Assembly: GCA_934273635.1 (NCBI GenBank)
Contig: CAKQSV010000003.1
Span: 44,975-108,974, forward strand
Source of the DNA: an uncultured Alphaproteobacteria bacterium
GTDB taxonomy: Bacteria > Pseudomonadota > Alphaproteobacteria > RF32 > CAG-239
Length of the DNA stretch: 64,000 nucleotides
Direction: 5' to 3'
The number at the start of each line of letters is the position of its first letter. Position 1 is the first letter of the stretch. Shown here piece after piece: positions 956 to 61,351 of this stretch. The notes under the pieces were generated by a model. It was given only the letters and a program-made list of their open reading frames with translations. It searched no databases and was not told the DNA's origin. Made by a program: the position numbers and the translations under genes.

Positions 956-3900
956 TCAGTTGAGTTTGTCCAGTGCTTTGGCAATCACATAATAAACCTT
1001 GCCGACATCTGACCCCGAGATAACCGAGAGCAAAACCCCTGCCCGCTCATTGCCTTTGGCCTTGCTGATGAGCATTTCAAAATCAGCCACATAACGGTTG
1101 ACAAGACTGCGGAAGTCAGCGTTTTCCTCATATTCCTTGCGGATAGCGCCAATCTGGTTTTTGGTCATCACTTTGGCTAAATATCTGACAAATGCCGCCG
1201 TGTCGCCGCTGTAATACTTTTTCCAAATCTCTTCTTCTGTGGTTGGATTGAAAATGCGGTTAATATCAATCGCCACGGTTTCCATCCGTTCAAACAACGT
1301 CGCCGCGTCTTTCAAAAAGCTGTCAACCTGAACCTCTTGATATTTAGTCTCGAGTTTGCGCAGATTCTCTGCCGCTTTCAACGAGGTGGAGTCAATAATC
1401 TCGGACTGACGTTCAAAGACTTTGGTGAACTCATCAGATTGTTCCAACCACATTTTACCCTTAACGCTGAGGTCTTCCGAGCCGTTTTTGAGAGCGTCCA
1501 TAGCCGCGTTTACTTTAAGCAACGTGTCTTCCGTAATACCGCTCAGCACGCCGGACTGTTTCAAAAACACCTCGCCTGACGAGCGGATGTCGTTGGAAAT
1601 TCGCTCGGCATTGGCGGCGATTTCATTAATGCTGGCACGCATTTTATCGCCGGCGTTGCTCATGTGTTTGGCGGTCAGTTGAGTGGAATCCTCCAACTGC
1701 AGGCTCAATTCTTTGAGTTGCGCGCCAATACCATTGATTTGTTCAAAGGCTTTGCCGGCGCGTTTACTCAACTGATTTGACGCCTCGTTCAAAACCACGT
1801 TAAAGCTGTCAACCAAGTGTTTGGTGTCTTCAGAAATTTTTATCATCTTGTCGTTTTGTTGCGAAATCAGGTTATTAACCTCAACCACGCCACTGCTCGC
1901 CTCTGCCGTAACAGTGTTGAAACCGGCGACATAGTCTTGGTATTTGGTGATAACGCCGTCAACACGTTTGTTGGTGTTGTTGACGGTCTCGGTCAACGTG
2001 TCGCTCAGGTTGTTTAACGACATCCCCGCAGACTCAATACTGCTGACAGATTGTTTTGAAACCTTACTAACATCTTCACCCGCTTTGATAATTCTATCAC
2101 TCAACGCATTGATTTCAAAAGCTAATTTACTACTTGTATCAAACACGCTTGCGGTGTTGTTTTGGAACAGGGCTTCAATCTCTTTCATCTTGGTACTGAC
2201 ATCGTTTGCCGCATCGGACAAATATTTGTATTGCTGTGCCAAAGACGCCTCACCCAAACGGGTTTGGGTCGATACCAGATTCACAACATCGGCAATGCTG
2301 TCTTTTTGCTTGTTAAAACTACCGCTGATTTGCTCGGACTGGCTCTTGATTTTGGTCAGACTGCCATCCAAACTCTTGACCTGACTTTCTAAAATTTGTG
2401 CAATATTGCGGCTATCAGTCAATAGTGAGCGTCCGCTCTCTTTCAGGCGGTTGCAGCTGGTATTAATCTCAGATCCGGCGACGGAACTCTCCTCTTTAAT
2501 CGCCTGAAGATAGTTGTTAAAACCGCCCAAAGTTTTGTTCAAATCTTCGCTGACGGCCTTGATTTTGCCGCTGATAACGCTAATAGAATCTTCAACCTCT
2601 TGGTTTTGTTGGTTGAGAATATTATTAACATTGAGCAACTTATCAATCGTTTGGTTGGAGGTGTTGTTCAACAGCAAGGCTTTTTTAGAGAACTCTTCTT
2701 CAAAACCGGCCATACGATTAAAGACGCGGTCGCTGCTTTGCTCCAACATCATAATCTGATTTTTGAGAGTATCGTTAATGGAGACGGTATTCTCGGAAAG
2801 TTTGTCGCAAATATTGAAAAATTCGGACTGCTGATTTTTGAACAACAGATTGATAGTGGCGGCTTTTTCATCTAAGGCCTGAACCATATCTGCCACATAA
2901 TGCGCGGTGTTTTCCGCCGTGCTGTTCAAAATTGACGACTGCTGATTGAACAGTTCAAGCAGTTTGTTGTGCTTGTTGGTGGTGTTGTCGGTCGCGCCGT
3001 TGACAGCTTTGATTTGCGCCTCTAAAATTGAGGCCACGTTCTCGGCACGGGAGACAATATTTTGCACCAAATTTTCAAGGTTCGACTGGTTGTCACGCAG
3101 GTTTGATGAAAAATCGCCGACTTTTGCCAAAGCCTGATCCGACAACAAAGCAAACTGCTGCGTTTGGGTTTGCAACTCTTGAGTGGCGCCGTTGGCTCGA
3201 CCAATCACCTCTGACGACTGTTTCAAACTGTTTTCAAGTTCGTTGTTCATACGTTTAACGGCGTTGACGGTTTCGTCATCAATTGAGTTTGCCATACGCA
3301 ACAGGTCGTCCATTTGTTGTTTAAGGGTGTCTTTGCTGTTTTCAATTTTGACCAAAGCCGCAGACAACAGTTTGTTTTGCTGTTCCATAACCGAGCTGTT
3401 TAACTGCCCTTGGGTTGACAAGGTGTCGGAAATTTTCTGCAGGCTGTCAGACTGGCGGGTAATAAGGGTTTCGACCTCTTTCACACTGTCAATCAGCACA
3501 TTGGCCGAGGATTTGGCATTACCGACGTTGGTTTGCATTTTTTCGCACACGCGATCAATAACCCCCTCAACATTAAGCGCCGTTGCCGACATGGAGTTGC
3601 TTCTGTCCTCAAGCTCAAGGCACAAAGCCTTGGTGGTTTCAACCGAACTGAGCTGTTCCTGATGAAGCGACTTTATCTTATCATCAAAGGTTTCCGAAGC
3701 ACTCACAACATTGGTGACCGCGGCTTGAGAAATGTCTTGCAAACGTTGCAATTTATCGGCCATGTGCGCGTCAACATCGTTCATACTCTGGTTAATTGTG
3801 TCGGCCAAACCGGTTAAATCCTGCACTTTCATATCAATACAGTCCGAAATGGTTTTGGTACGCGAAATAATGGCGTCAACCTCTTTGTTCAGATTGCTGC

Positions 3901-4960
3901 GGAACTCTTCAAATTTACCGGACGCCAAAACCGAAGTTTTATCCAGATTTTTAAGATAATCTAAAATCTGCCCCGACTGATTGGCGAACGTTTTTTCAAC
4001 ATTAGCCGATTTTTCTTGCAGTTGCTTGTAAATATCCTGATAATTGGCAATAATTCCGGCCGAAAGTTTCTCCAGACGGGTGCTCTGAGCGTTGATAAAA
4101 CTGCTGATACTGTCAAAATCGTTATTGAGCTTGGATGAGCATTTGTTCAACAGCTCGCTGTTCATATTCACAATTTGGTTTTGTCCGCTATACATTTTGT
4201 TCAGTTCGCCCGAGGCCGACTGAATATTTTCCAACTGTTGCTTGATGGTGCCGGTCACCTGTTCCATTTCGGTTTTGACGGTGTTGGCCGTGGCGGAAAA
4301 ATCGGTAATGCGTTTTTCAATAACGTTGGCCGTGGTGTTGACTTTGTCATTGATATAATCCAAACCCTGCGACATCAGTTTCATACCGTCGTTCAACTCG
4401 TTCATGGTGGTGCCAGAATAGCCTTGCAACACCGAGACCAACTTTGAAAAGTCCGTCACATGCTGTCCTAACTCGGTTTTAATGCGGTCGGTTTCTTCAG
4501 TAGCCTGTTTGGTGGCCTGACGAAGTTCCAACACCTGCGCGCGGATGGCGTCCGTCATCGCCTTTGAGGTTTGCGCCGCGCCGTCTTCAGGATAAACCAA
4601 CTGATTCATATAAGCGTGCAATAATTTGGCCTCTTGCTTAAAACTGGCACCGCGGTCGATATAAGCAATCACCATCCAGATAATTGCCAATGGCAAAGTT
4701 ATGCCGGCCAGAAAACCGCCAAACTCATCGGGCATCATCAAAAACAGGTTAGACCAGCCGAAAAACTGGGTGATGTATATAATCACCACCAAAAACCAAA
4801 CCGAGCTGATACCGAGCATAAGTTTATAGAGCTTGCCGGCGTCCTTACGGATGCTGTCTTCGGCAGGCGTTTCAACTTGCGGTTCTTCGGTCATAAATTG
4901 CGGAATTTTAACGGCATTGACGTTCGGCTGATTTTGCTGTTCAGGCATAATATTCCCCAT
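956..4960 (-). CDS. giant (1334 aa) membrane-anchored coiled-coil protein; two N-terminal TM helices; conserved globular C-terminus
   Basis: Single 4-kb ORF. N-terminus has hydrophobic segments LMLGISSVWFLVVIIYITQFF and GGFLAGITLPLAIIWMVIAY. More than 1000 aa of low-complexity Q/N/S/L/E/K-rich heptad-like sequence follow. The C-terminal ~120 aa are non-repetitive. All overlapping plus-strand ORFs are short. Confidence 0.75.
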   Translation of the reverse strand: MGNIMPEQQNQPNVNAVKIPQFMTEEPQVETPAEDSIRKDAGKLYKLMLGISSVWFLVVIIYITQFFGWSNLFLMMPDEFGGFLAGITLPLAIIWMVIAYIDRGASFKQEAKLLHAYMNQLVYPEDGAAQTSKAMTDAIRAQVLELRQATKQATEETDRIKTELGQHVTDFSKLVSVLQGYSGTTMNELNDGMKLMSQGLDYINDKVNTTANVIEKRITDFSATANTVKTEMEQVTGTIKQQLENIQSASGELNKMYSGQNQIVNMNSELLNKCSSKLNNDFDSISSFINAQSTRLEKLSAGIIANYQDIYKQLQEKSANVEKTFANQSGQILDYLKNLDKTSVLASGKFEEFRSNLNKEVDAIISRTKTISDCIDMKVQDLTGLADTINQSMNDVDAHMADKLQRLQDISQAAVTNVVSASETFDDKIKSLHQEQLSSVETTKALCLELEDRSNSMSATALNVEGVIDRVCEKMQTNVGNAKSSANVLIDSVKEVETLITRQSDSLQKISDTLSTQGQLNSSVMEQQNKLLSAALVKIENSKDTLKQQMDDLLRMANSIDDETVNAVKRMNNELENSLKQSSEVIGRANGATQELQTQTQQFALLSDQALAKVGDFSSNLRDNQSNLENLVQNIVSRAENVASILEAQIKAVNGATDNTTNKHNKLLELFNQQSSILNSTAENTAHYVADMVQALDEKAATINLLFKNQQSEFFNICDKLSENTVSINDTLKNQIMMLEQSSDRVFNRMAGFEEEFSKKALLLNNTSNQTIDKLLNVNNILNQQNQEVEDSISVISGKIKAVSEDLNKTLGGFNNYLQAIKEESSVAGSEINTSCNRLKESGRSLLTDSRNIAQILESQVKSLDGSLTKIKSQSEQISGSFNKQKDSIADVVNLVSTQTRLGEASLAQQYKYLSDAANDVSTKMKEIEALFQNNTASVFDTSSKLAFEINALSDRIIKAGEDVSKVSKQSVSSIESAGMSLNNLSDTLTETVNNTNKRVDGVITKYQDYVAGFNTVTAEASSGVVEVNNLISQQNDKMIKISEDTKHLVDSFNVVLNEASNQLSKRAGKAFEQINGIGAQLKELSLQLEDSTQLTAKHMSNAGDKMRASINEIAANAERISNDIRSSGEVFLKQSGVLSGITEDTLLKVNAAMDALKNGSEDLSVKGKMWLEQSDEFTKVFERQSEIIDSTSLKAAENLRKLETKYQEVQVDSFLKDAATLFERMETVAIDINRIFNPTTEEEIWKKYYSGDTAAFVRYLAKVMTKNQIGAIRKEYEENADFRSLVNRYVADFEMLISKAKGNERAGVLLSVISGSDVGKVYYVIAKALDKLN

Positions 4961-10305: not shown

Positions 10306-12111
10306 TTAAAAGAACAGGCTGCCTCTCAGCAAGGTTTCTTCTTCATCATGTCCGTGGTTGTCGTTATAACGGTATTGCAGGCTGACAGCCGTGTTTTTGC
10401 TCGGGCTGACGCTCAGTGCCGCTTTATATTTGATTTTATCGGCGTATTTCTGAGTGGCAAAAATTTTCTCAGCGCCAAGGTGGGCGCGCCAAGCCCCAAA
10501 ATCAGCATAGACACCGGTTTCTCCCCCTATTCCTGCCCAAGAGTTATGCGGCAGAAAACCGCCGTAGCCAAGATGATTGTTAATCATAACATAAGCCGTT
10601 ATGTTTTCCAACGGTTGGTACGCCGCGCCGCCGCCCGCCTGCAGGTTGAAAGCATAGCCCTCGTCCTCGTTTTCGGGGTTAAACTCACGGTCGATTGAGG
10701 CTTTGATATTGTATGATATGGGCTTAAACATAAAATCACGCGGTGACAGCGAGCTGATTCCGATAATATCAAGATTTTGCAACACTACACTGTGACGGGT
10801 ATCATAGCGGCGCGCCGTCAGGTTTAAGAAATTGATTTCCGCGCCTGACAACAATCCGTAACTATTGTCCAACAAGGAGGTATAAGCCGGACGAACGCTG
10901 ATTTGGGTAAAACCCGCGCCGTTGCGCCGCCCTACTCCCAAGCCGACAGCCGCGGAATCGTGCGACATCAGCGGATTTTTGCCGTGTTGCAACTCGGTCA
11001 GATTATCTTTGGTTTGCAGGCGATTGCGTTGGCGCAAAACCGCAAAACTTTGGCGGCGATAATCCGCAAGCTCTAATTTTTCGGCAATGTATTGGTATTG
11101 AACATACTGATACGCCGTTTCCAAGACACCGGCTTGCTGCTCCGGCGTAAGCTCGTCAAGTTGAAGTTCGCCACGGTCTACAAACCTGCGATAAGCCTGT
11201 TTTTGCGCTTTGGTCATCTGAGAATAGCGGTGTTTGATTTTGTTTTGGCGCGACGGGCGGTAGTTGATGTTTTTGACCAAATTCGGACGGCTGTTGACGG
11301 CTTTGAGCGTGTCTAAAGGAATCACATAAGACGGAAACTGCGCCGCCAATTTAAGTTCCGGTCGGACGGCATCAAAGGTCTCGAGCAACATATAAGAGCA
11401 GTTTTCGCTGAAAAAATAATAACGGGTTTTAGTGTGTCCAAGCTCCCATAAATGCGCCATAAGCATATCTAATTCTTCAGGTGAAAAATTAAGATTAAGC
11501 TCCCAAATGTCGCGGTTTTCAATGTTATTGTATTGGTTGATGATGTCATAATAAGGTTTGACGGTAAAACCGCCGTAATACCCGCCGGTCAAGCCGTAAA
11601 GCGCAAACAAAACGCCGTTTTGCTCGCCGGTAAACGCGCCATAATTCGCCCCGTGAGCCAAAAGTTGCGTTCCCTTGCGGGCGGTGTCTATGCGTAGCAA
11701 AGTGTGTCCGAACAATGACGCCGGATTATTCATATAAGCGTTGGTAAACAGTAGTGTCACGCCGGCGGGGCGGATATCGTGATAAAAACTTTCATATTCC
11801 GGACATTGCGGAAAAGCGCTACGCACCAATCCTTGCTTTTTGAGCCATTTGTATCGTGCCGGAAACAGGCATTTGCGCTGATTGTCTGTGCCGTTATCAA
11901 ATAAATCTATGGTTGCTCGCAGTTCGGCGGCGGCATCGGTTTTGCCTTGAGGACTAATAAAAAATTCGGGCGAATCAATCGAGCTTTCGGAATAGCCGAA
12001 CATTTGCGGCTGAAAATGGAGCAAAGCCAACCACTGCGGATTTTGCGACGTCTCTTGCGCCGAGGCGGCAAAACTGCATAAAAAACAGATTATAAAAATA
12101 ACAACAGGCAT
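10306..12111 (-). CDS. DUF4105-family (Lnb-like N-terminal domain) periplasmic/outer-membrane protein
   Basis: 601 aa with signal peptide. FGHTLLRI motif recalled as typical of DUF4105. Large C-terminal region. Confidence 0.5.
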   Translation of the reverse strand: MPVVIFIICFLCSFAASAQETSQNPQWLALLHFQPQMFGYSESSIDSPEFFISPQGKTDAAAELRATIDLFDNGTDNQRKCLFPARYKWLKKQGLVRSAFPQCPEYESFYHDIRPAGVTLLFTNAYMNNPASLFGHTLLRIDTARKGTQLLAHGANYGAFTGEQNGVLFALYGLTGGYYGGFTVKPYYDIINQYNNIENRDIWELNLNFSPEELDMLMAHLWELGHTKTRYYFFSENCSYMLLETFDAVRPELKLAAQFPSYVIPLDTLKAVNSRPNLVKNINYRPSRQNKIKHRYSQMTKAQKQAYRRFVDRGELQLDELTPEQQAGVLETAYQYVQYQYIAEKLELADYRRQSFAVLRQRNRLQTKDNLTELQHGKNPLMSHDSAAVGLGVGRRNGAGFTQISVRPAYTSLLDNSYGLLSGAEINFLNLTARRYDTRHSVVLQNLDIIGISSLSPRDFMFKPISYNIKASIDREFNPENEDEGYAFNLQAGGGAAYQPLENITAYVMINNHLGYGGFLPHNSWAGIGGETGVYADFGAWRAHLGAEKIFATQKYADKIKYKAALSVSPSKNTAVSLQYRYNDNHGHDEEETLLRGSLFF

Positions 12112-12118
12112 ATCTATA

Positions 12119-12158
12119 ATAAAAAAATATCCCCCTCCGCCTCAGCAGAGAGGGATAT
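12119..12158 (-). terminator. rho-independent terminator between the DUF3015-like gene and the DUF4105 gene
   Basis: ATATCCCCCTC...GAGAGGGATAT hairpin followed on the minus strand by T8. Confidence 0.55.
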
Positions 12159-12169
12159 TGCACAACTTT

Positions 12170-12619
12170 TTAGATTAAGGCCAAAAGGTTGGCGGTTACG
12201 TCAACGGCGTCAACATTTTCTGAGGGAAACAAAGAAGCAAAGTTGTTCTTTGAAATCTCACCCAACTTCTCGCTGTCAACATTTAAGATTCCGGCAAGAG
12301 TATCAATGGTTTCACCTTGTCCGGCAGAAGCGTCAAGCGCGAACTGCTCCATGTTGTTCTCCAGAAAAGCCAAAGCCATACGACCAGTACCGCCGCTGAT
12401 ACGTCCCTGAGGGTCGCAACCTGAAGTGCCAGAAGAAATACCAAATGTTTGGTTGAAAGAAATTCCGTTGGTGGTGACGGCCAAAATCTGCGGAATCGGG
12501 CCTTTTTGTCCGCGCCATGCCATAGAACCCAAGCCGCAACCTGTGCTGTCAACGGCGTGCGCGTCAGCAGAAAACAGCGCAACAGCCAATGCAAACATTG
12601 CTAAATACAGTTTTTTCAA
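12170..12619 (-). CDS. small secreted protein, DUF3015-like (TTG start)
   Basis: AAGGAG RBS 8 nt before TTG. The product starts MKKLYLAMFALAVALFSADAHA (signal peptide), then GCGLGS...GTSGCDP motifs recalled from DUF3015. Confidence 0.5.
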   Translation of the reverse strand: MKKLYLAMFALAVALFSADAHAVDSTGCGLGSMAWRGQKGPIPQILAVTTNGISFNQTFGISSGTSGCDPQGRISGGTGRMALAFLENNMEQFALDASAGQGETIDTLAGILNVDSEKLGEISKNNFASLFPSENVDAVDVTANLLALI

Positions 12620-12729
12620 ATTTTTTCTCCTTATAAAAAAATTTATCATTAGAAGATTAACATTGCGAAAATGTTTGTAAAGCAATTTGCTGATTTTGTG
12701 CAGTGATATTTAATTTTGTGCAAAAAGGC

Positions 12730-13659: not shown

Positions 13660-15168
13660 CTAAAAATCCAGTGGGGATCCGTATAACCTGAAAGACAACA
13701 TGGGGTGGTAGCGTAAATCGCCAGTACCACTGGCATATATTGAACCTGTCCCATCTCCTGCAAACGCAAGAACTGTAAAGCCTTGAGAATAATACTCTGT
13801 TGAAGTACGAAAATATCCGCTTTTAAACCTGTCTCCTTGTGTACTACGGGTTAGGTTGTATAATACTTGCCGATAATCATAAATTTGTTTAATCTCGCCG
13901 CCAGCATAAATATACCACTCACCTTTTTTGCACACTTCCGAACAACCGGAAACCTCAAAATCAAGCATGCTCTTAAACACCGGATATTGATAGTAATAGC
14001 TTGGCTCTAATGTTTTGTTTTTTTCGCGGGCATACGCCACCAAAAAATTGGTATTATATTTGCCATCTATATCTTGAATCATTGCACTACCCGGAAGATC
14101 AGGCAAAGGTGAGCTTTCCGAGCTATGAGTGCCGGCTTTTTCTTCTCCTGACACACTAGATAAATTAATAATTCGCACTTTATCGGAAGACGATGTCGGC
14201 AGGTGTGTGATAATTCCCACCTTAACGCCACCAATAACTGCATCGTCCCCTACTTGGCACTTGGCTGTTGTCTGTTTGCAACTCCACTCATTAAAGCTAA
14301 ACGTTCCCAAACTCTCCGGCAAGTTCTCGGTTCTGACCGTTTTTTTACAACTGCTAAAGTGACATTTCTTGGTGCAGGCTGAATTTATCAGTTGATAATC
14401 ATTGGTTTTGCCACAAACCTCATCCCCGACCGGCGTGCCATCCGCCTTGTTTTCCGCATAGCGATAATAGGTGTTGCCGCCAACCAAACATTGCAAAGTG
14501 CCGCCGCGGTTTTCATATATGTTGGGATTGCTGAGATAAGGATAATCCCATGGGTCACAGGCGCTAAGCTCACAAGCGCCATTATGCCAATTCCACCCAT
14601 CATGACACTCTTTATAACCAAATACCTCGCCTTGGCTGTCTATACAATTTAGAACCGTTCCGGCAAAGTTTCCGGGGTGTTTGGTATATGGATACTTGTT
14701 GGCACGATCACACCCTTTGTCGCAAATGTCATTTTGATAGGTACTGGTGTTTTTGCACTGCTTAATCTTATAATACCAAACCGGTTTTAACGTATCTCCC
14801 TCTTGAGTATACCCCGCCAAGCAACCAAGCACACCGCCGGAATCTTTTTGTTGGGGCGTGAAACCGCCACCGAGGTGATCTATAACCGTTTTGCCGTCTG
14901 ATGTGGTTTGAGATAAATCACTTTCACTTAAGGGATAACCGCGGCAACTCTCGACCATACACAGCACTTTTTTGGAGCCGCTGTTCGCAAACGGACACAC
15001 AACTGGCACCACGCCTTTGGCAATACATTTGTCATAATCAACCGTATAACCCAAACTCTCGCAACTGGTGTTGCTCGGGGTCGAGGATGGCGTCAGCGCA
15101 TGAGAGAGCGACGAACTCAACAGCAACATTGCACTACCGGATGCTATAATCTTATTTGCTTTTGTCAT
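13660..15168 (-). CDS. secreted Cys-rich protein B (502 aa), paralog of the upstream 904-aa protein
   Basis: AGGAGG RBS. Signal peptide. 22 Cys. Shares the C-x-SLGY N-terminal motif and the CD(R/K)xx(F/Y)PY...PG..AGT(L/V)..C...GYK module with the 904-aa protein. Confidence 0.7.
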   Translation of the reverse strand: MTKANKIIASGSAMLLLSSSLSHALTPSSTPSNTSCESLGYTVDYDKCIAKGVVPVVCPFANSGSKKVLCMVESCRGYPLSESDLSQTTSDGKTVIDHLGGGFTPQQKDSGGVLGCLAGYTQEGDTLKPVWYYKIKQCKNTSTYQNDICDKGCDRANKYPYTKHPGNFAGTVLNCIDSQGEVFGYKECHDGWNWHNGACELSACDPWDYPYLSNPNIYENRGGTLQCLVGGNTYYRYAENKADGTPVGDEVCGKTNDYQLINSACTKKCHFSSCKKTVRTENLPESLGTFSFNEWSCKQTTAKCQVGDDAVIGGVKVGIITHLPTSSSDKVRIINLSSVSGEEKAGTHSSESSPLPDLPGSAMIQDIDGKYNTNFLVAYAREKNKTLEPSYYYQYPVFKSMLDFEVSGCSEVCKKGEWYIYAGGEIKQIYDYRQVLYNLTRSTQGDRFKSGYFRTSTEYYSQGFTVLAFAGDGTGSIYASGTGDLRYHPMLSFRLYGSPLDF

Positions 15169-15181
15169 TATTCCGCCTCCT

Positions 15182-17896
15182 CTAATATGTAATATTCAAA
15201 ACAGGTATAACACTTACTTTAGCTGTACGGAGTAATAATCGATCAGAATCGCCAAATCTCCTTTGATACGCTCTGTTGCCATCTTCTGACAGGTCATCAA
15301 TCCAAGTCGTTGATGCGCCGGATATAGATTCAGCACAAATTACACCCAGATACTGGTATTCTCTACTTTTATCTCCTGGGGTCATTTCTCTTGGTGGCAT
15401 AAACCATTTACCTTTACCAACTTTAGAATTACTTTCCAAACCCTCAGGCGCATAGTTTGCGGCATAGGTTTTGGCCTCATCCCATGTAAGTGAGCCTTTG
15501 GCAGCACCAGCAATTAGAAGCTCTTTACCAGATTTTCCGAATACCACACCGACTTGCGTCGAACCGGAATAGAGCACATCAGTCGGCGCACATTTGCTCA
15601 AATCTGACATATAGCAATATTTGTAGCAGATACCATAACCACAACCACCATGTTTGAAACCTGTCGGACAGGTTGATATTCCGGGGAAAATATACCCATT
15701 TCTACAAGTGTTAATTTCAATAATCATTTTATCTGTCCTGATGTGATAGAGCCCATCCGAGCCCTTGACCACACTTGCCACATGACGACATTTGTTGCAC
15801 GCGGCTTCTATGCCCTCATTGCAACCCTCGGGCACCAATGCGCAAACTGCGTCATCCCCAAGTTTTTTGCCATCCTGCGACAAACAATGCGTATATTTAT
15901 GCACACAATAACTATCCGCCGAAGTGCGCGGTTCTGATTTTGCCGAAACCGTTGCAAAACCATTATCACTTAAAAAATAATTGAGCATATAAATCCCTGG
16001 ATAATATCCATAATAAGTTGTATACCCCGTCGGTCCCTCGATCAAGCACATACCTTTGGTCACACCATAGGTTCCCAGATAGCGCCCCATGTAGCACATG
16101 GTGTAGCCATAATATGAACCGTCGGCGTCGGTGCAAGATGTTGACTTGCCATAATATCCGGCGTTAAAACCCGTATTGGCGTAATTATTTGAAATGTCAC
16201 CATTGGTGTTATAAAACGTCGCGGTGGTAAACGGCAGATAATAATCTCGACCGCCCTCGCCATTGCGCGCACAAACACAACGCCGATTGTTGTTCGGATC
16301 GACAATCCACAACTCGCCTTTACTAACATCATCGTTGCATTTGCTATAACCAAAATACGCTTTATACCCTAAAGACTCACTACTGTCCGCCTCATAACAG
16401 GTCTCTAAAGTGCCGGCATCTTCTCCCGGGTTTTGCGCATAAGGAAAACGGGTTTTATCGCAAACGTTCTCAACACACTTATGAGTTGTGTTATCCATAC
16501 GATAACCGCGATTACAACATTTTTCGGTGTCGCCTTTGTTTTGGTTGTCGTCCAAATTAACCCAACCACTACCGGTAAATTTGCCCTCGCTCCAGCCTTT
16601 GTTACAATCATCATGTTGATATTTACAACGCACACCTTGCGACAAATCGGCGCAAAACTCAACCTTGGCGCCCTTGTTTTTGAGTGTGTTAATATCCGTC
16701 GAGCCTGAGGCTAAAGCGCTCTGTTCCACGCACGCAGACGTGCCGACATCGTAACCGGTGCAATATTTGCTATCATTGCACCAGACCTTACTGCTGTCGG
16801 TCGGACAACGCACGATAATATTATTGTTGTAGCAATCGGCATCGCTCTTGGTATAGCCCTGCGCGTCACACTCGTTTAAGGCCGTATCTGAGATGCTGCC
16901 GCTGTTGGCGCCCGACAACGCATAGCCGCGACACAGGTAGCCGTTGAGCTCTTCGCTTGTGGGTTTTAAGGTTGCACCCTCCGGCTCATACAAACAATGC
17001 CAGGTCGCGCCGTATAAATATTCATCTAAGTTGGTCTCGGAGGTTTTGGTACAGCCGCTTTCACAGTTGGAATCCGTGGTGAGAATACTGCCGTTCAGTT
17101 CGCAATAATATGACGAATTTATCAGCATGGATTTACTGCAGACCGTGTCAAAGTGCGAGGCGCAGGTGCATGAGGCATATTTGGGAACACTCTTGCCACC
17201 CTCCCACACGTTGCACGCCGTGCCCATGCCGATAGTATGGGTGTTGCCGGTGCCGCACTCGACATAACTGTTGGGACAGCAACCACTATAATAAGTTTCT
17301 ATTTTTTTGGTTTTCGGCTCATAGGCGCGGCAGGTGTTGGAGACATTAAAAGAACCCTTGTTGCCGCAACTTTCCTGATAATCGCCGTTTTGATTTTGGA
17401 TGGTGCTGTACGGATAGCGGCTACGGTCGCAGGAACAGCGATATTTCAATCCGCCCTCGGCAAAATAGCAACTGTCGGATACTTGCGCCGTGGAATTGTT
17501 GTCACAGGCATCAGTACTGGTTGCCGTGTAGACTTTAGCGTTGCAGCAACCGGAGGTATAGGCACTCGCCCCTTCGCGATTGACATCCTTGGAGCAAAGA
17601 TAAGACGGTTTAAGGTCGCCGGTGCACGCCGAGACCGGAATTGCATACCCAAGCGAGGCGCATTGCGTCCGAACGTCTATCTCCCCCTTGCCAAAGTCAA
17701 GTTTGGTATCATCCGTCAAAAAACTCACACTTGCATATTTAGGATAAGGAGAAGTTGTAGGTTTTGACCTAGTTGTAAGGTTGGGTTTGATTTGATCTAC
17801 GAGGTTGGCGCCTGATGATGATATAAGCCCCGCACTGACATTAAGCGTTGTTGCACACAACAAAATAAGTATGCCAAAACAAAAGCGCATATTCAT
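15182..17896 (-). CDS. secreted Cys/Tyr/Gly-rich protein A (904 aa)
   Basis: Signal peptide MNMRFCFGILILLCATTLNVSA. About 58 Cys. Repeated CDxxR(Y/F)PY modules. The stop lies 13 nt before the start of protein B, consistent with an operon. Confidence 0.7.
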   Translation of the reverse strand: MNMRFCFGILILLCATTLNVSAGLISSSGANLVDQIKPNLTTRSKPTTSPYPKYASVSFLTDDTKLDFGKGEIDVRTQCASLGYAIPVSACTGDLKPSYLCSKDVNREGASAYTSGCCNAKVYTATSTDACDNNSTAQVSDSCYFAEGGLKYRCSCDRSRYPYSTIQNQNGDYQESCGNKGSFNVSNTCRAYEPKTKKIETYYSGCCPNSYVECGTGNTHTIGMGTACNVWEGGKSVPKYASCTCASHFDTVCSKSMLINSSYYCELNGSILTTDSNCESGCTKTSETNLDEYLYGATWHCLYEPEGATLKPTSEELNGYLCRGYALSGANSGSISDTALNECDAQGYTKSDADCYNNNIIVRCPTDSSKVWCNDSKYCTGYDVGTSACVEQSALASGSTDINTLKNKGAKVEFCADLSQGVRCKYQHDDCNKGWSEGKFTGSGWVNLDDNQNKGDTEKCCNRGYRMDNTTHKCVENVCDKTRFPYAQNPGEDAGTLETCYEADSSESLGYKAYFGYSKCNDDVSKGELWIVDPNNNRRCVCARNGEGGRDYYLPFTTATFYNTNGDISNNYANTGFNAGYYGKSTSCTDADGSYYGYTMCYMGRYLGTYGVTKGMCLIEGPTGYTTYYGYYPGIYMLNYFLSDNGFATVSAKSEPRTSADSYCVHKYTHCLSQDGKKLGDDAVCALVPEGCNEGIEAACNKCRHVASVVKGSDGLYHIRTDKMIIEINTCRNGYIFPGISTCPTGFKHGGCGYGICYKYCYMSDLSKCAPTDVLYSGSTQVGVVFGKSGKELLIAGAAKGSLTWDEAKTYAANYAPEGLESNSKVGKGKWFMPPREMTPGDKSREYQYLGVICAESISGASTTWIDDLSEDGNRAYQRRFGDSDRLLLRTAKVSVIPVLNITY

Positions 17897-18070: not shown

Positions 18071-18313
18071 ATGTCTGAAAACAAAAGTAGAGTTTGCTGT
18101 TTTTATGATTATGCCGACAAATGTGACTGCGCCGAAGATGATCGTTGCGGTTGCAATTATCCCAACAACACAGACTGTTCATATAAATGTGTGAAGTCTG
18201 ACAAAACGCTAAAATCACCCGAACAGCCTCTTGAGATTAAACCAAACACTGTCTGCTTTTGCAGTCCGAAAGATTGTGATTGTAGCGGCAATCAGAAAAT
18301 TGCGGAAAAATAA
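18071..18313 (+). CDS. small (80 aa) cytoplasmic Cys-rich protein, CxC-repeat, metallothionein-like
   Basis: GGAGG RBS 5 nt before ATG. MSENKSRVCCFYDYADKCDCAEDDRCGCN...CFCSPKDCDCSGN. 12 Cys. The stop lies 2 nt before the trxB ATG. Confidence 0.6.
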   Translation: MSENKSRVCCFYDYADKCDCAEDDRCGCNYPNNTDCSYKCVKSDKTLKSPEQPLEIKPNTVCFCSPKDCDCSGNQKIAEK

Positions 18314-18315
18314 AT

Positions 18316-19257
18316 ATGGCTGAATATAAAACTAAAATCTTGATTATCGGCTCGGGACCGGCCGGATACTGTGCGGGAATTTATGCCGCGCGCGCCGGAC
18401 TTGAGCCGATTATTGTGACCGGACAACAAACCGGCGGGCAACTCACCATGACTTCTGAAATTGAGAATTACCCTGGGTTCGCTCAGCCGATTAGCGGCGC
18501 CGAACTGGTGGAAAATATGCGCAAACAATGCCTGGCTACCGGTTGTCTGATTGTTGACGACACGGTGACTGAAGTTGACTTCGCGCACCGACCGTTTGTT
18601 TTGAGCTCTGAGAAACACAATCAATTTTGCGGCGACAGCGTGATTATTGCTACCGGCGCGTCAGCGCGTTGGCTAAATGTTAAAGGTGAAGAAAAGTTTC
18701 GCGGTTGGGGTGTTTCGGCATGTGCCACATGTGACGGTTTTTTCTATCGCGGCAAACGGGTGGCTGTGGTCGGTGGCGGCAACACCGCGGCGGAAGAGGC
18801 TTTATATTTGGCGGGGTTGGCATCGCAGGTTTTGTTAATTCACCGTCGAGACGCTTTGCGCGCCGATAAGATTTTACAAGAACGTTTGATGAAAAATCCT
18901 CGGATTAATCTGATTTGGGACAGCGTGGTGGAAGAGGTTTCGGGCTCGGAGAATCCGCTCAGCCTTAATACCGTACGCGTGAAAAACGTAAAAGACGACT
19001 CTGAGGCGATTTTGAACGTAGACGGCTTGTTCGTGGCTATCGGACACACGCCGAACACCGCTATTTTTAAGGGGCAGTTAAAGTTGGATGAGCAAGGTTA
19101 CATCATCACCGCCGCAGGCTCTTGCAAAACCAGTGTGAGCGGGGTGTTTGCCGCCGGAGACGTGGTGGCGGGCAACCACAAACAAGCCATTATTGCCGCC
19201 GGAAACGGTTGTCAAGCGATGTTGGAAGCTGAAAAATATCTTGCAGAAATGCAATAA
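18316..19257 (+). CDS. trxB: thioredoxin reductase
   Basis: GSGPAGY FAD motif and CATC redox-active disulfide. Confidence 0.93.
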   Translation: MAEYKTKILIIGSGPAGYCAGIYAARAGLEPIIVTGQQTGGQLTMTSEIENYPGFAQPISGAELVENMRKQCLATGCLIVDDTVTEVDFAHRPFVLSSEKHNQFCGDSVIIATGASARWLNVKGEEKFRGWGVSACATCDGFFYRGKRVAVVGGGNTAAEEALYLAGLASQVLLIHRRDALRADKILQERLMKNPRINLIWDSVVEEVSGSENPLSLNTVRVKNVKDDSEAILNVDGLFVAIGHTPNTAIFKGQLKLDEQGYIITAAGSCKTSVSGVFAAGDVVAGNHKQAIIAAGNGCQAMLEAEKYLAEMQ

Positions 19258-32715: not shown

Positions 32716-33753
32716 TCAATTTTTGCATTTTACAACATAAAGATGTTCATTAACTGTATTATTACTGTTTTTATAATGTCTGTGTTCATTGTCTAATTCT
32801 GTTCTAAAACGCCTGTATTCTTTTATGTATTCTTCAACATCGCCTTTAGCTTCTAAAATTTTCAATATTCTGTCCCTAGAAATTATGCCTTCATCATTAT
32901 AACTTAGTACTATGTATTTTACTTTCGCATGCTCAATAAGATCCTCTAGTGTTTCAGCTGCTTTTGCTTTTTTACAGTACAAAGACTTTTTATCACTATA
33001 ATCTCTTTGTCCTGTTTTTCCCCTTAGATCTTGCTTATCCCAAACGGCAAGTGTTTCTAGAACATGAAAATTAGAAGCATATTGTCTTTCGTTATAGGGC
33101 GGATCCAAATATAGTATATCACCTTTGATTTCCCGTATAAGCTTGTTTGCATCTTCTTGTCTCACTAAATTTTCCTTATTATTTGAACTTATTTTAGGCA
33201 ACTCCACATGAATAGGTTTTAGAGCCATTGACCTCCATATTTTTAAATATGCCCCATATGTGCCCGATATATTTGCAACAAAATCGACCGCATCAATCAG
33301 AGATGAAAGCAAAATATAATATTCTGACTCAGATATTTTTTGTGTGATATACCATTCCTCAATTTGTTCTCTCATTGCATCAATTCGTAATGCATTACTG
33401 TCAGAAAAATATTGCCGATTATATTTTCCAGATGGAGCAAAATTTTCAAAAAAATATCCTTTTTTTATCAATCGAGGATTGTTTAATATATCCAATACAC
33501 CTTCTATTCCTGAAGAAGATATCTTATGATATTTGGGCATATGGTTTGCCTCTATCAAAGCATATTGAACTATATATGAATATGTCATAATATCATTGGC
33601 TATCACCCTCAATCCTTTCTGTTTGAAATATGTTCCAACAGCTCCTGTTCCCCCAAAGATATCAATAAGCGTTCCTGAACAACATATTCCGCTGTGCTGG
33701 ATTGAACTTTGAATAAATTCAAGCAATCGTGTTTTATTACCTATATATTTCAC
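32716..33753 (-). CDS. D12-class (Dam/DpnM-like, alpha-type) N6-adenine DNA methyltransferase
   Basis: N-terminal KYIGNKTRLL and FGGTGAVG (motif I). Later LYLDPPYNERQY (motif IV). Confidence 0.8.
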   Translation of the reverse strand: MKYIGNKTRLLEFIQSSIQHSGICCSGTLIDIFGGTGAVGTYFKQKGLRVIANDIMTYSYIVQYALIEANHMPKYHKISSSGIEGVLDILNNPRLIKKGYFFENFAPSGKYNRQYFSDSNALRIDAMREQIEEWYITQKISESEYYILLSSLIDAVDFVANISGTYGAYLKIWRSMALKPIHVELPKISSNNKENLVRQEDANKLIREIKGDILYLDPPYNERQYASNFHVLETLAVWDKQDLRGKTGQRDYSDKKSLYCKKAKAAETLEDLIEHAKVKYIVLSYNDEGIISRDRILKILEAKGDVEEYIKEYRRFRTELDNEHRHYKNSNNTVNEHLYVVKCKN

Positions 33754-35813
33754 TGGTTAAATTCCAAATCTAATTTGTTTTTCAGTTGTTCATCAAAGTA
33801 AGGAGAATATACTAACTTAAACTTTGTTTTATTATGTATATCTGTATATACAATTATTACTATAAAATTCTGTTCTGAGGTCACATCGGAAAAATGTCCC
33901 AACTTTATTGCTCCTTCAACTTTGACATACTCAATCTTAACATAATACTCTGGATCTTTATTAGGTTGAGTTGGCAAATTGTAAATAAAAGCATCAAATT
34001 TTATATGATTATTTAAACATAAACTATCAATTATCTTTCCTGCATTTTTCATTGCTGTTTGTATTTTTGTATCAGAAAGTAGTGAAAAATAATCATTTTT
34101 TCCTTCTGCCACCATGAAAATATTTGCGGCATCCTGCATTATTAAATCAACTTTCGTTGAGACTCTTTCTATTCTTTTGTAGGTATCTAAGTCTCTTTGG
34201 TGAATAATCAATTGTTGCCATGATGAGTGGTGTGTATGAATAAAACACAGTAGCCAACCTGCCCGAATAGTAGACATGTTTAAATATGTGGAAACTACGG
34301 CCGTTTCTTCTGTTTGCATGAGAGGAATTGTATTAATTAAAGAAGACGGACTATATTCATCAGTACTATCAATTTCATTTTCTAGTTGTGTAATTAGAAC
34401 AGAATTATTCAACACCAAAATATCAATATAATTTGCAATAGCTTTATATAATTTCGTTCCTTTTTTAGATTTAATATCAAAGTATTCCGGCGTTTCTACT
34501 ATACCATATCCAATAACAGGTCTATTTTTATTTCCTCTATAGTCATACCCAAACAATTCACAAAAAGCTACAATCTCACCACTCTCTGGATCTGGAGAAA
34601 AAGTTAGAATTCCATTTGATTTTTTACAAATTCTAAGAGGAATGATTATCACTTCCTTATATTGCTCTGATAAGAGTGTATGAATTATCGTTTGCATATG
34701 AGGAAATTTATTAATGAGATAATTTTTACAACTACTTAAATCAGCTATTCCTATTTTTACATTTCCTGTGATATAACTAAGTGCTGGTTTATTTTGCTTT
34801 TTCAGAAAACTCAACATCTCTGAAATCCACGTTTTCTTTTCATAGGCCTTCCATATTGTTAACAAACTGTAATTTATTTCATCAATGGGATATTGAGTAA
34901 TAAATGTTCCATCATCCTCATTATACAAATATTTATCCAAATCACTCGCGAATTTTTCCGGATATTCAAGTAAAGCTTCTTCAATTTTTGAATTAATTAC
35001 AGGAAAATCTAACTTTAATCTAGCTTCTGTTCCTATTCCATTTCGTCCATACTTTCCTTCTTTCAGATAGGACAACATATGTATAATAAAATCTTTTTCA
35101 TACCTTCTTTGTTTTGAAATGTAAAGTTTATCAACATCTGAAACCAACACTGATTTTATATATTGTTCAAACAATTCTTTAGCATCTTTAGGTGTACGAA
35201 CCCGTGTTGAGGAATCATTAAAATTATTCTCTAAATATGCAACAAATGAAGGTGTTTTATAGCGTATAGAATACAGCAAATGGTTATATACCTGTAACGA
35301 GGTTGGCTCTCTCACTGTATTTTGAGAAATATCTTTTCCTGAATAAAATGTTTGATAAATAAATGGAACTCCATTTTTTGCAGCTCCAAGTTTACGCCCT
35401 TCTCTTTGCCATTGTGAATTTCCAACAGATGCTGTTTCTGTATTTTCACCTGCTAAAATAGGTTTATTTGATGTTAATGAATAGAATATATAATCAGGAA
35501 GATCTATGAATTTTCTAATATTGTCTACACTTCTAGGTAAATTCCATTTATTATACGTTCCGCAAATTTTTATTGCATATAGCCTACCTTTTTCGTCTCT
35601 GAAAATGTATATGGGTTGATCAATGGGCTCATAAACCACACCATAAAAGGCAAGTATATAATCAGAATTAGTAAGCATATTTAACAGTGCAATACCCTCT
35701 AAAATATTATCGCTATACAGTAAAAATTCATACACAGATGATAGTGACCTAAATTCATCCAGAGAGATAATTTTAGATGCTGTAATTTTAGGATTTACTA
35801 AATTTGATTGCAT
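33750..35813 (-). CDS. orphan 687-aa protein, candidate restriction endonuclease or effector of the cassette
   Basis: Long AT-rich ORF. Translationally coupled at both ends (2-nt gap to the upstream MTase; 4-nt overlap with the downstream MTase). No motif I recognise. Confidence 0.55.
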   Translation of the reverse strand: MQSNLVNPKITASKIISLDEFRSLSSVYEFLLYSDNILEGIALLNMLTNSDYILAFYGVVYEPIDQPIYIFRDEKGRLYAIKICGTYNKWNLPRSVDNIRKFIDLPDYIFYSLTSNKPILAGENTETASVGNSQWQREGRKLGAAKNGVPFIYQTFYSGKDISQNTVREPTSLQVYNHLLYSIRYKTPSFVAYLENNFNDSSTRVRTPKDAKELFEQYIKSVLVSDVDKLYISKQRRYEKDFIIHMLSYLKEGKYGRNGIGTEARLKLDFPVINSKIEEALLEYPEKFASDLDKYLYNEDDGTFITQYPIDEINYSLLTIWKAYEKKTWISEMLSFLKKQNKPALSYITGNVKIGIADLSSCKNYLINKFPHMQTIIHTLLSEQYKEVIIIPLRICKKSNGILTFSPDPESGEIVAFCELFGYDYRGNKNRPVIGYGIVETPEYFDIKSKKGTKLYKAIANYIDILVLNNSVLITQLENEIDSTDEYSPSSLINTIPLMQTEETAVVSTYLNMSTIRAGWLLCFIHTHHSSWQQLIIHQRDLDTYKRIERVSTKVDLIMQDAANIFMVAEGKNDYFSLLSDTKIQTAMKNAGKIIDSLCLNNHIKFDAFIYNLPTQPNKDPEYYVKIEYVKVEGAIKLGHFSDVTSEQNFIVIIVYTDIHNKTKFKLVYSPYFDEQLKNKLDLEFNQ

Positions 35814-35814
35814 A

Positions 35815-36672
35815 TTATACCTCTTTACGAAAAATCAGAATATGCTGGTGAATTAAAGATGGAATATATGCAAAAGGATACCCATATATATGTAGCATTT
35901 TTGAATCATCATGCCAAATAATATCTGATTTTAATACAAAGCCAGGAATTGAAGAAATTGTCCGAGCCAACTCACCTGACAATAAATGAAACTCTTTTCC
36001 CCTGTACATATCTCCTATAAAAACTGCCATGTAACTATTTTTTTTCAGTGCAGGCAGTGTGCTTTCAAAAATAGATTTCATTTCCTCAAGCCATTCTTCC
36101 TTTGTTTGCAACGACTTGTTATTAAACTTTGAAAGATTAGATTTTCGTTCTGCCGCAGATGATCGCGTTTTGGTTAACCGATCCATAATCCAATAAGGAA
36201 CATCCGTTATCACAAAATCGACACTATCACTTTGTATTTTTTTTAATTTCTCTTTCGCATCTCCAATCAGAACAGGAAATTGTTTTAATTTTTCCAATTT
36301 GCACACTTCATTGTAAATACTTACCCATTTTTCATTAAGTTCTATACCTATTGCTTCTCTGCCGCAAAGTGCCGCACCTAGTAAAGACCCTCCAACGCCA
36401 GCCAAAGGGTCAAGTATTAATTGTCCTTTTTTAGAAAAAACTTTTATTAAATCAGCACATAATTGTGGTGGTTTCTGCCCTCCATGCTGAGCTCTTAGCT
36501 TATGTTGCAGATTTGACGGATACACCTTAGATATGACGCTTTTTGTCCAAAATTGCCACTCTGCTCCAGTTAGATCATTCAATTTATTTCTTGGATCATA
36601 CACTGGTTTTCTATTGTAACCTTGGTTACTTTCATTATTTTTTGGCACTACCTTTCCAAACAAATCTTTCAT
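35815..36672 (-). CDS. N4/N6 DNA methyltransferase (PF01555-like) with circularly permuted motif order
   Basis: HGGQKPPQL...ILDPLAGVGGS...IGIE (motifs X-I) precede DSVDFVITDVPYW (motif IV). Confidence 0.75.
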   Translation of the reverse strand: MKDLFGKVVPKNNESNQGYNRKPVYDPRNKLNDLTGAEWQFWTKSVISKVYPSNLQHKLRAQHGGQKPPQLCADLIKVFSKKGQLILDPLAGVGGSLLGAALCGREAIGIELNEKWVSIYNEVCKLEKLKQFPVLIGDAKEKLKKIQSDSVDFVITDVPYWIMDRLTKTRSSAAERKSNLSKFNNKSLQTKEEWLEEMKSIFESTLPALKKNSYMAVFIGDMYRGKEFHLLSGELARTISSIPGFVLKSDIIWHDDSKMLHIYGYPFAYIPSLIHQHILIFRKEV

Positions 36673-38845: not shown

Positions 38846-38980
38846 AGCCTTACCTCTTTTGCGCCCAGCATAGCCGACAGTCCGCCAAATTGCAAATTTT
38901 TCGCGGGTTCTACGCACAAAAAAACAGCTCTGTACCGATTGGGGCACAAAGCTGTTTGAATAATGTTTGAGAAATCAGAA

Positions 38981-60889: not shown

Positions 60890-61351
60890 TTACATTTTCA
60901 AATACTCTAAAAACGCCTGACAGCCCTCGTAAATATCCCAGTAGCTCTCGTCAAAGTTACCGGTATACCAAGGGTCGCGAATATTGCGCGGGTGGTCAGT
61001 AAAATCTAATAAGCGATGGATTTTGTTTTCCGTATCCGGACCAACGAGTGATTGGATGTCCTCAATGTTGCTGTCGTCCATCACCAAAATATAGTCATAA
61101 TAAGCATAATCGCGCGGACGAATACGCCGAGAATAATGTTCCTCAAACGGTACATGCATAGATTTCAGCATCTCGCGCGTGCCATGATGAATGCCGGCGT
61201 GGCACATCTCGTTATAACTTTCAGTCGCCGCGGAATCAATTTCAAACTGATTGGACAAGCCACGTTCTTCAACCATTTGCTTAAACACAAACTGCGCCAT
61301 CGGCGATCGACAAATATTCCCTAAACATACAAACAAAACTTTAATCATCAT
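60890..61351 (-). CDS. low-molecular-weight protein-tyrosine phosphatase / ArsC-like (CX5R)
   Basis: VLFVCLGNICRSPMAQ P-loop. DP motif. Start ATG overlaps the hsdR stop (ATGA). Confidence 0.8.
   Translation of the reverse strand: MMIKVLFVCLGNICRSPMAQFVFKQMVEERGLSNQFEIDSAATESYNEMCHAGIHHGTREMLKSMHVPFEEHYSRRIRPRDYAYYDYILVMDDSNIEDIQSLVGPDTENKIHRLLDFTDHPRNIRDPWYTGNFDESYWDIYEGCQAFLEYLKM

Follow-up and report, generated by a model that had tools for sequence, protein, structure and literature searches.

The DNA analysed here, which we call the window, is a stretch of 64,000 nucleotides (nt) from contig CAKQSV010000003.1 of an uncultured alphaproteobacterium, and our subject is a pair of adjacent genes within it, A and B, that encode Cys-rich exported proteins built as a stalk carrying a head. 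Gene A (15182..17896) encodes a protein of 904 amino acids (aa) and gene B (13660..15168) a paralog of 502 aa with a short stalk and a head; all features of the two genes lie on the minus strand, and all coordinates are those of the window. B follows A after a spacer of 13 nt (15169..15181), in which an AGGAGG ribosome-binding site is found immediately 3' of the A stop codon. Protein A contains 58 Cys (6.4%), 68 Tyr (7.5%) and 91 Gly (about 10%), and protein B contains 22 Cys (4.4%), 34 Tyr (6.8%) and 50 Gly (about 10%). The n/h/c layout of a signal peptide is recognised at both N-termini by inspection only: in A it occupies aa 1-22 (17831..17896; MNMRFCFGILILLCATTLNVSA followed by G, with predicted cleavage between VSA and G), a similar N-terminus being present in all A homologs, and in B it occupies aa 1-24 (15097..15168; MTKANKIIASGSAMLLLSSSLSHA followed by L, with predicted cleavage between SHA and L). 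An earlier note on this DNA had described a two-gene operon of secreted proteins preceded by AGGAGG ribosome-binding sites. The gene arrangement, the Cys counts and the signal peptides all stand, as does the AGGAGG site of B, but the Shine-Dalgarno sequence of A is AAGAGGTG, a good one that is not AGGAGG.

Both open reading frames (ORFs) belong to a small family that has no annotation. Among 5.8 billion proteins, full-length homologs of A form 30 clusters with 30-90% identity and those of B form 15; all of these clusters are without a name and essentially all are without a Pfam domain. There are 44 invariant Cys residues in an alignment of 30 A homologs and 20 in one of 16 B homologs. The ratio of nonsynonymous to synonymous divergence (dN/dS) between strains, calculated on the backbone of each protein, is 0.02-0.07 for A and 0.08-0.17 for B, and we therefore regard both as real genes under purifying selection. 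A search of the window against Rfam gave no match, and scans for promoters and terminators performed no better than on shuffled sequences.

A and B are true paralogs, as had been proposed. A BLASTP comparison of the two proteins gives E=9e-5 across the CDx3(F/Y)PY module, and the profile-profile comparison of their families has a probability of 98.9% (E 2.9e-17), with the whole of mature B aligned on A334-904. When the parts are compared separately with hhalign, A337-625 matches B30-305 at 97.3% (E 1.6e-11) and the A head matches the B head at 95.4%; a second, off-register match between A337-625 and B30-305 (96.2%) proves that the shared module occurs in tandem. In the joint alignment of this core (A337-625 with B30-305) there are 15 invariant Cys and two types of unit. 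The motifs quoted in the earlier note are present where they should be, namely CASLGY at A79, CESLGY at B36, CDKTRFPY...LGYKAY at A479, CDRANKYPY...FGYKEC at B153 and the Tyr/Gly stretch TGYTTYYGYYPGIY at A623-636. The C-x-SLGY motif does occur in both proteins, but the pairing of its two copies has to be revised: the profile-aligned counterpart of CESLGY in B is A343 (CDAQGY), not A79, and the CASLGY at A79 appears to be an additional copy, matched weakly at E 1.3e-3.

Between signal peptide and head, both proteins are Cys-rich and predicted to form successive beta-hairpins. Protein A opens with a linear motif (aa 23-71, 17684..17830), LVxQIKPN..RSKPT..KYASVSFL, that is predicted to be disordered (predicted local distance difference test, pLDDT, <45) and whose family form, LVxQIKPN..SKPT..K[FY]ASVxF[LV], is about as conserved as the folded stalk, with a column identity of 0.64 across the family. 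This motif also occurs in the stand-alone tandem-repeat protein P0104, is degenerate in P0122 and P0134 and is absent from B; it may be an anchoring or sorting segment. It is followed by an A-specific region of Cys-rich beta-hairpins (aa 72-336, 16889..17683; pLDDT about 80) that includes CASLGY (aa 79) and CSCDRSRYPY (aa 154), and whose predicted structure has no fold match in the PDB. Its resemblance to the shared core is weak (hhalign probability at most 19%), and we do not claim that the N-terminal third of A (aa 60-336) represents an internal duplication of that core.

The shared Cys-rich core of A (aa 337-625, 16022..16888), delimited by hhalign and by the joint alignment, is homologous to B aa 30-305. 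It contains a type I unit at aa 343-382 (C-x3-GY-x6-C-x7-CP-x5-VWC-x5-C-x-GY), a type II unit at aa 474-542 (C-x4-CD-x3-FPY-x3-PG-x2-AG-x4-C...FGY-x2-C) and a second, degenerate type II unit with an LPF variant at aa 540-617. The Tyr/Gly-rich linker at aa 600-650 (15947..16099), which holds TGYTTYYGYYPGIY, varies between strains and has low pLDDT at aa 624-630. A distal Cys-rich region (aa 626-772, 15581..16021; pLDDT about 90) joins stalk to head; C692, C700, C703, C743, C757, C761 and C769 are invariant in it, and no homologous region is found in B. The Cys-rich stalk of B (aa 30-305, 14254..15081), as outlined by the family and joint alignments, is made of a type I unit at aa 36-78 (CESLGYT..C..CP..KKVLC..C.GY) and two type II units, at aa 149-199 (CDKGCDRANKYPY...) and aa 199-252 (CELSACDPWDYPY...). 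Its internal repeat is also detected when B is compared with itself by hhalign (51%, E 1.5e-4), along with the off-register matches to A. In general terms, type I is a unit of about 35 aa with the pattern C-x2-LGY-x6-C-x7-CP-x5-K-x2-C, and type II is a unit of about 50 aa with the pattern C-x4-C-x3-[FY]PY-x3-P-x3-AG-x4-C...[FY]GY-x2-C-x2-GW...C.

Neither type of unit could be assigned to a described family. The stalk repeats have no Pfam or NCBIfam model, including among the relatives, and neither profiles nor folds matched the known Cys-rich repeat families that were considered (EGF-like, furin-like, TNFR, the Myxococcus repeat and others). Searches of PDB sequences with the A- and B-family profiles gave no match, and a model of the stalk alone (pLDDT 79.6) has no PDB neighbour with a Foldseek probability above 0.1. 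These are two new Cys-rich repeat families, without model or structure. The eukaryote-like extracellular-matrix flavour that the Tyr/Gly-rich stretches had evoked is not sustained, as there is no Pfam match to EGF or extracellular-matrix domains and the Foldseek matches to EGF arrays are noise (probability <0.1).

The repeats are rare, and they accompany a variety of domains. A profile search with the core alone retrieved 89 proteins at E<=1e-3 among 1.84 billion cluster representatives, comprising A-types, B-types and a third type with 3-5 clean tandem type II units, such as P0104, P0112, P0118, P0122, P0126 and P0134. Many third-type relatives end in Lcl_C (PF07603), which scores above its gathering score of 34.9 bits in P0132 (50.2 bits), P0142 (42.3 bits) and P0137 (36.4 bits), and one stalk-repeat relative, P0135, ends in a BspA-type leucine-rich repeat (LRR)/DUF285 domain. 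In P0154, P0156 and P0158, 2-5 tandem copies of the type I unit lie ahead of a Phage Tail Collar domain (PF07484, above gathering score), so that this unit is a mobile module in its own right, combined there with another kind of receptor-binding head. Because the same repeats precede Lcl_C, tail collar and BspA-type LRR, we interpret the stalk units as a general-purpose extracellular spacer, not described before, that carries various binding heads. One further relative, the 1209-aa Lcl_C-bearing protein P0160, has upstream of it at locus L017 (1-4492) two large genes (592 and 616 aa) without Pfam match, which may be further family members in a larger cluster.

The heads are the part of the two proteins for which relatives of known structure could be proposed. 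The A head (aa 773-904, 15185..15580) is a putative, divergent member of the Lcl_C/DUF1566 family of C-type-lectin-like domains, as suggested by a fold match and by PF07603 in relatives, and the B head (aa 306-502, 13663..14253), with its DGKYNTN and C..GEWY..GE motifs, looks to be of the same kind, PF07603 being detected in members of its family. These detections amount to four of 16 B-family members (best E 1.1e-6), with a precomputed match on P0044 as well, and two of 30 A-family members (best 1e-3). The consensus of the B family reads DGKYNTN...C..GEWYLP..GEL...P.LSF, and its DGKYNTN...C..GEWYLP..GEL portion is what we take to be the DUF1566 pattern. The AlphaFold2 model of A, built on an alignment of 30 sequences, has a mean pLDDT of 74.7, rising to about 90 for aa 440-904 and the head. 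Its top Foldseek match in the PDB is 8q4e_A, the C-terminal domain of the Legionella protein Lcl (probability 1.00, E 3.4e-3, template modelling score 0.60 on the target, 132 columns), and the next matches are C-type-lectin-like domains of snake venoms and natural killer cell receptors. The model thus gives the A head a C-type-lectin-like fold like that of the Lcl C-terminal domain. The scaffold residues of the A head that are kept across strains are TWDEAKxYAxNYAPEGLE, GKGKW.MP and PV..ITY. The view that the two proteins belong to no bacterial family consequently holds for their Cys-rich stalks, which stay undescribed, and no longer for their C-terminal domains.

The two genes travel together. 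A is followed by B in 10 of the 10 loci with sequence available downstream of A, which agrees with an operon, and in the nine other cassettes the gap between them is 8-14 nt in seven, an overlap in one and 224 nt in one. Beyond the pair itself, no neighbouring gene is conserved across these nine other loci. In the closest strains the cassette occupies a syntenic housekeeping context, with ogt-nfo-trxB on one side and greA-DUF3015-Lnb_N...dnaG-rpoD on the other, and the neighbours in relatives include GcrA or FlaF, both alphaproteobacterial markers. In a collection of species-representative genomes, matches were confined to three gut metagenome-assembled genomes (MAGs) labelled uncultured Azospirillum sp. 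or Azospirillaceae. One of them (CAMHFM01, uncultured Azospirillum sp., loci L001-L004) carries at least four separate A-B cassettes on different contigs, about 40-43% identical to that of the window, which indicates expansion of the cassette within a genome. Gut metagenomes, among them Hadza samples, are the source of contigs that encode identical or nearly identical proteins. Every match that we found is from a gut MAG or a gut metagenome, which is consistent with the restriction to host-associated Alphaproteobacteria that the earlier note had put forward as a check. An obligate pair of paralogous genes that is multiplied within genomes is a new feature.

When the cassette was aligned from five syntenic gut strains with the window as reference, stalk and head behaved in opposite ways. 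Stalk DNA (A aa 60-590 and B aa 23-340) is 97-100% identical to the window, against 45-65% for the A head (aa 773-893) and two patches of B in the same strains. Between strains with 98-99% identical backbones, A heads are 54-61% identical in DNA and the A linker (aa 600-650) is 69-75% identical. In B, hypervariable patch 1 (aa 341-362, 14083..14148) and patch 2 (aa 443-498, 13675..13842), the latter covering the last 55 or so aa of the lectin-like fold and containing indels, are both at 50-59% DNA identity on a backbone of 97-99%. Of 18 B variants, 17 share one common backbone (at least 90% aa identity), on which patch 1 occurs as 6 and patch 2 as 8 alleles among the 18; the 7 A variants, likewise on what is essentially one backbone, have 6 head alleles. 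In the variable segments loops are replaced and indels occur, and the scaffold residues are retained. The patch 1 allele of the window reads SGEEKAGTH at a place where most alleles have a conserved Trp (SG.W..G.H), and the allele of L011 does likewise.

Synonymous divergence (dS) in the same strain pairs is about 0.07 in the backbone and 1.2-2.7, that is saturated, in the heads. It follows that recombination has introduced the heads as old alleles, and that they are not the product of recent mutations. Discordance between head and backbone phylogenies leads in the same direction, since L008 and L010 have head types in common on backbones that are only 77-86% identical, the L008 backbone being 98-99% identical to that of the window. 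The alleles of the A and B heads assort independently, and strict co-variation is not observed; the strain represented by a contig of 98,920 bp, for instance, has an A head with 54% aa identity to that of the window and B patches with 100% and 90%, although some of the same-contig A/B pairings in this comparison are inferred from the equal length of the contigs. Silent head cassettes that could act as donors, in the manner of pilS, were sought in the window and in the large syntenic loci, with matches at chance level only.

We consider it moderately probable that the locus is a bicistronic cassette of two paralogous, Sec-exported, disulfide-stabilised stalk-and-head binding proteins with heads under diversifying selection. 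After Sec export, A and B would fold in the periplasm with formation of disulfides, and would then be displayed on the cell surface or released to the medium. The role of the stalk would be to keep the head at a distance from the envelope, and that of the head to bind a ligand (glycan or protein) of host mucus, food or other microbes. Loops exposed on the head would be under diversifying or frequency-dependent selection, and whole head alleles would be exchanged between strains by homologous recombination, with stalk and flanks as anchors, giving rise to strain-specific binding and/or antigenic types. Because gene order and tight coupling are invariant, a joint action of A and B is probable, perhaps within a hetero-oligomer. 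The earlier suggestion of disulfide-rich adhesins or host-interaction proteins fits with lectin-like heads and with their strain-level hypervariability.

Several observations weigh against this reading. The proteins of the window themselves have no Pfam or NCBIfam match at E<=1, so that the heads are placed in Lcl_C/DUF1566 by homology through their relatives, profile comparison and predicted structure, with no direct hit. That same result, together with a C-terminus predicted to be soluble and lectin-like, disagrees with an autotransporter passenger or a Cys-rich outer-membrane protein class, the identities that the earlier note had named as contradicting its proposal. The EPN, QPD and WND motifs of canonical C-type lectins (Lectin_C, PF00059) occur in no head allele, nor is there a Pfam match to that family. 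A basic surface of the Lcl type, which binds glycosaminoglycans (GAGs), is not found in the heads either: pI values lie at 4.9-6.5 among the strain variants and at 4.6-9.2 over the families, and Lys and Arg are not conserved in excess. Such a surface, like trimerisation, belongs to the function of Lcl and is no defining trait of the Pfam domain. Since the heads are acidic to neutral, lack EPN, QPD and WND, and have only the fold in common with Lcl, a ligand cannot be transferred from Lcl to them. No secretion-system or anchoring genes were found linked to the cassette, its neighbours being housekeeping genes, and the data are compatible with a periplasmic location. Finally, the sample behind the allele counts is small, about 6-18 strain variants in all.

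The same variation lends itself to other explanations. A and B could be structural components exposed at the surface, with heads that vary chiefly as a means of evading phages or secretory immunoglobulin A (IgA). This would account for variation concentrated in loops of the most distal domain on a conserved scaffold, and for the maintenance of old alleles with saturated dS, as expected under negative frequency-dependent selection; the gut is rich in both phage and IgA. However, the fold belongs, with its relatives (Lcl, the targets of diversity-generating retroelements, and the tail-collar and BspA domains that the stalk repeats also carry), to the binding modules, and a scan of viral contigs with the B family revealed no phage relatives or phage context. 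Evasion is also not mutually exclusive with binding, from which it is inseparable in silico, and as an account on its own we regard it as unlikely, if the least so among the alternatives. Alternatively, A and B could be strain (kin) recognition receptors, in which polymorphic heads bind homotypically or A to B between matching cells. TraA of Myxococcus has a comparable logic, with a signal peptide, a polymorphic lectin-like PA14 domain with indels and a stalk of conserved Cys-rich tandem repeats (PMC3820747), and the allelic pairs tgrB1/tgrC1 of Dictyostelium may be seen as a further analog. The invariant pairing of the two genes and the many discrete head alleles on one backbone are in keeping with such a function, but the independent assortment of A and B heads argues against a strict lock-and-key between them, and no PA14 domain, MYXO-CTERM tag or TraB-like partner is present. 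The presence of several divergent cassettes in a genome would suit a repertoire of different binding specificities just as well, and these uncultured gut bacteria have no known social behaviour. Kin recognition seems to us a slim prospect, and slimmer still is its bolder version, in which the A-B cassette would be a polymorphic strain-recognition system of the greenbeard type in a gut commensal: through their exchangeable heads, cells would bind solely to those partners, or to those host or mucus niches, with matching determinants, and multiple cassettes would form a combinatorial identity code.

A different location or a different source of variation can also be envisaged. Strictly periplasmic or otherwise envelope-internal disulfide-rich proteins, such as sensors of cell-wall or periplasmic glycans, would need nothing more than the Sec signal peptide, which is all that is evident here, no outer-membrane anchor, autotransporter domain, lipobox or linked secretion genes having been recognised. 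Yet extreme polymorphism between strains with old alleles would hardly be expected of a protein without contact to the exterior, the stalk repeats accompany surface modules of the tail-collar and BspA type, and Lcl, the closest characterised relative, is type II-exported and surface-displayed (PMC11162425); we therefore find this account distinctly improbable. As for the variation itself, C-type lectin (CLec) domains of the DUF1566 type are classic targets of diversity-generating retroelements (DGRs), common in the human gut, in which adenine-specific mutagenic retrohoming rewrites residues of a variable region (VR) formed by the C-terminal 45-50 or so aa of the fold; DUF1566/CLec2 domains account for about 14% of DGR targets (PMC5758913, PMC4159848). 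That C-terminal position is also the one of B patch 2 and of a large part of the variation in the A head. The 64-kb window, however, has no copy resembling a template repeat (TR) of either 3' end and no ORF of at least 200 aa with the YxDD motif of a reverse transcriptase (RT), and no neighbour is conserved at the nine other loci. The variable segments contain indels, substitutions are of all classes and not adenine-specific, synonymous sites are saturated (dS 1.2-2.7), and the variable part of A comprises some 120 aa of its head together with the linker, in place of one VR of about 45 aa. We reject a DGR as the source on these grounds, considering it very improbable. Hypervariability of a DUF1566 domain driven by recombination without a DGR is new.

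Stalk-and-head binding proteins, as we prefer to see A and B, are in their general plan a kind of bacterial surface protein that is already known, and Lcl is the nearest example. Lcl is a type II-secreted, surface-attached Legionella adhesin, whose trimeric, DUF1566-containing C-terminal domain binds sulfated GAGs through a basic surface (PMC11162425). The likeness lies in a signal peptide and in a long stalk of repeats whose tip bears a head of the same predicted C-type-lectin-like fold, with 8q4e as its best PDB match. In Lcl that stalk is a collagen triple helix, whereas here it consists of disulfide-rich beta-hairpin repeats; A and B have no collagen Pfam match and no GXY periodicity in their sequences. 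They also differ from Lcl in lacking its type of amphipathic N-terminal anchor helix and in having acidic to neutral, hypervariable heads without a basic GAG patch, in forming a paralogous pair and in falling below Pfam thresholds. Literature searches under the name Lcl_C or PF07603 returned nothing relevant, only unrelated 'LCLC' papers.

With DGR-diversified proteins such as Mtd of Bordetella phage and LdtA of Legionella, the heads share a CLec scaffold that tolerates massive exposed variation towards its C-terminus, and a role in surface binding that for A and B is putative; they differ from them in the absence of a TR, an RT and an A-to-N signature, their diversity, marked by indels and a saturated dS, having arisen as old alleles recombined. 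The resemblance to TraA/TraB comprises the signal peptide, a hypervariable lectin-like domain, Cys-rich tandem repeats, a two-gene operon and discrete allele classes. In TraA, however, the variable domain is an N-terminal PA14, in contrast to the C-terminal Lcl_C-like domain here, the Cys repeats are unrelated (no TIGR or NCBIfam match), there is no MYXO-CTERM tag in A or B, which end in the lectin-like head and in no sorting tag, and the partner gene is a paralog in place of the OmpA-domain protein TraB. Neither A nor B matches PA14, TIGR Cys-repeat or OmpA models, and the likeness to TraA is one of analogy only. Eukaryotic mosaic receptors of the selectin/EGF kind similarly present a lectin-fold head on a rod of small Cys-rich beta-hairpin modules, but the stalk units have no detectable homology, in sequence or in fold, to EGF, CCP or other eukaryotic modules (no Pfam match at E<=1, Foldseek probability <0.1), and the similarity is convergent at most.

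A few other features of the window deserve mention. An 80-aa ORF with 12 Cys (CCFYDYADKCDCAEDDRCGCNYP...VCFCSPKDCDCSG), without signal peptide or Pfam match, lies at 18071-18313 (plus strand), divergent from A, and ends 3 nt before trxB (18316-19257). Gene calls include it (80/84 aa) in L007 and L011, two syntenic contigs, and, being tightly coupled to thioredoxin reductase, it could encode a metallothionein-like or redox-active Cys-rich peptide. Downstream of greA, at 10306-12685 (minus strand), are genes for a DUF3015 periplasmic protein and a 601-aa Lnb_N/DUF7840/DUF7843 protein, which are syntenic in all close strains and have no evident link to the cassette. A low-GC island at 32716-36672 (minus strand; GC 0.30-0.32 against about 0.46 elsewhere) adjoins ComEC (36806-38947) and encodes a D12-class N6-adenine DNA methyltransferase, an N6_N4 methyltransferase and a 687-aa ORF without Pfam match that is probably the cognate nuclease; the island is likely a restriction-modification module of horizontal origin. 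A second stretch of lower GC at the window edge (61348-63999, minus strand; GC about 0.38-0.41) encodes a type I restriction enzyme R subunit (HSDR_N, SWI2/SNF2, T1RH-like_C), and a 1334-aa ORF at 956-4960 (minus strand) has only sub-threshold Pfam matches of the coiled-coil type (ATG17_like, DUF948).

The uncultured Alphaproteobacteria of the gut, known mostly as "Azospirillum sp." MAG lineages, are almost unstudied, also in how they attach to or recognise their surroundings. The cassette provides candidate surface binding proteins with a defined scaffold, in which a lectin-like head is related to a proven adhesin domain, and it comes with heads that differ naturally in allele on a stalk that does not vary, an ideal series for swap experiments. 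It also shows that recombination of old alleles suffices for a DUF1566/CLec domain to reach a population-level diversity comparable to that generated by DGRs. Should the heads govern strain-specific binding to the host or between cells, they would supply strain markers and a handle on niche partitioning and on selection by immunity or phages. If the greenbeard reading were true, this would be the first TraA-like system of self/non-self recognition outside the myxobacteria, located in the human gut and built from two new repeat folds.

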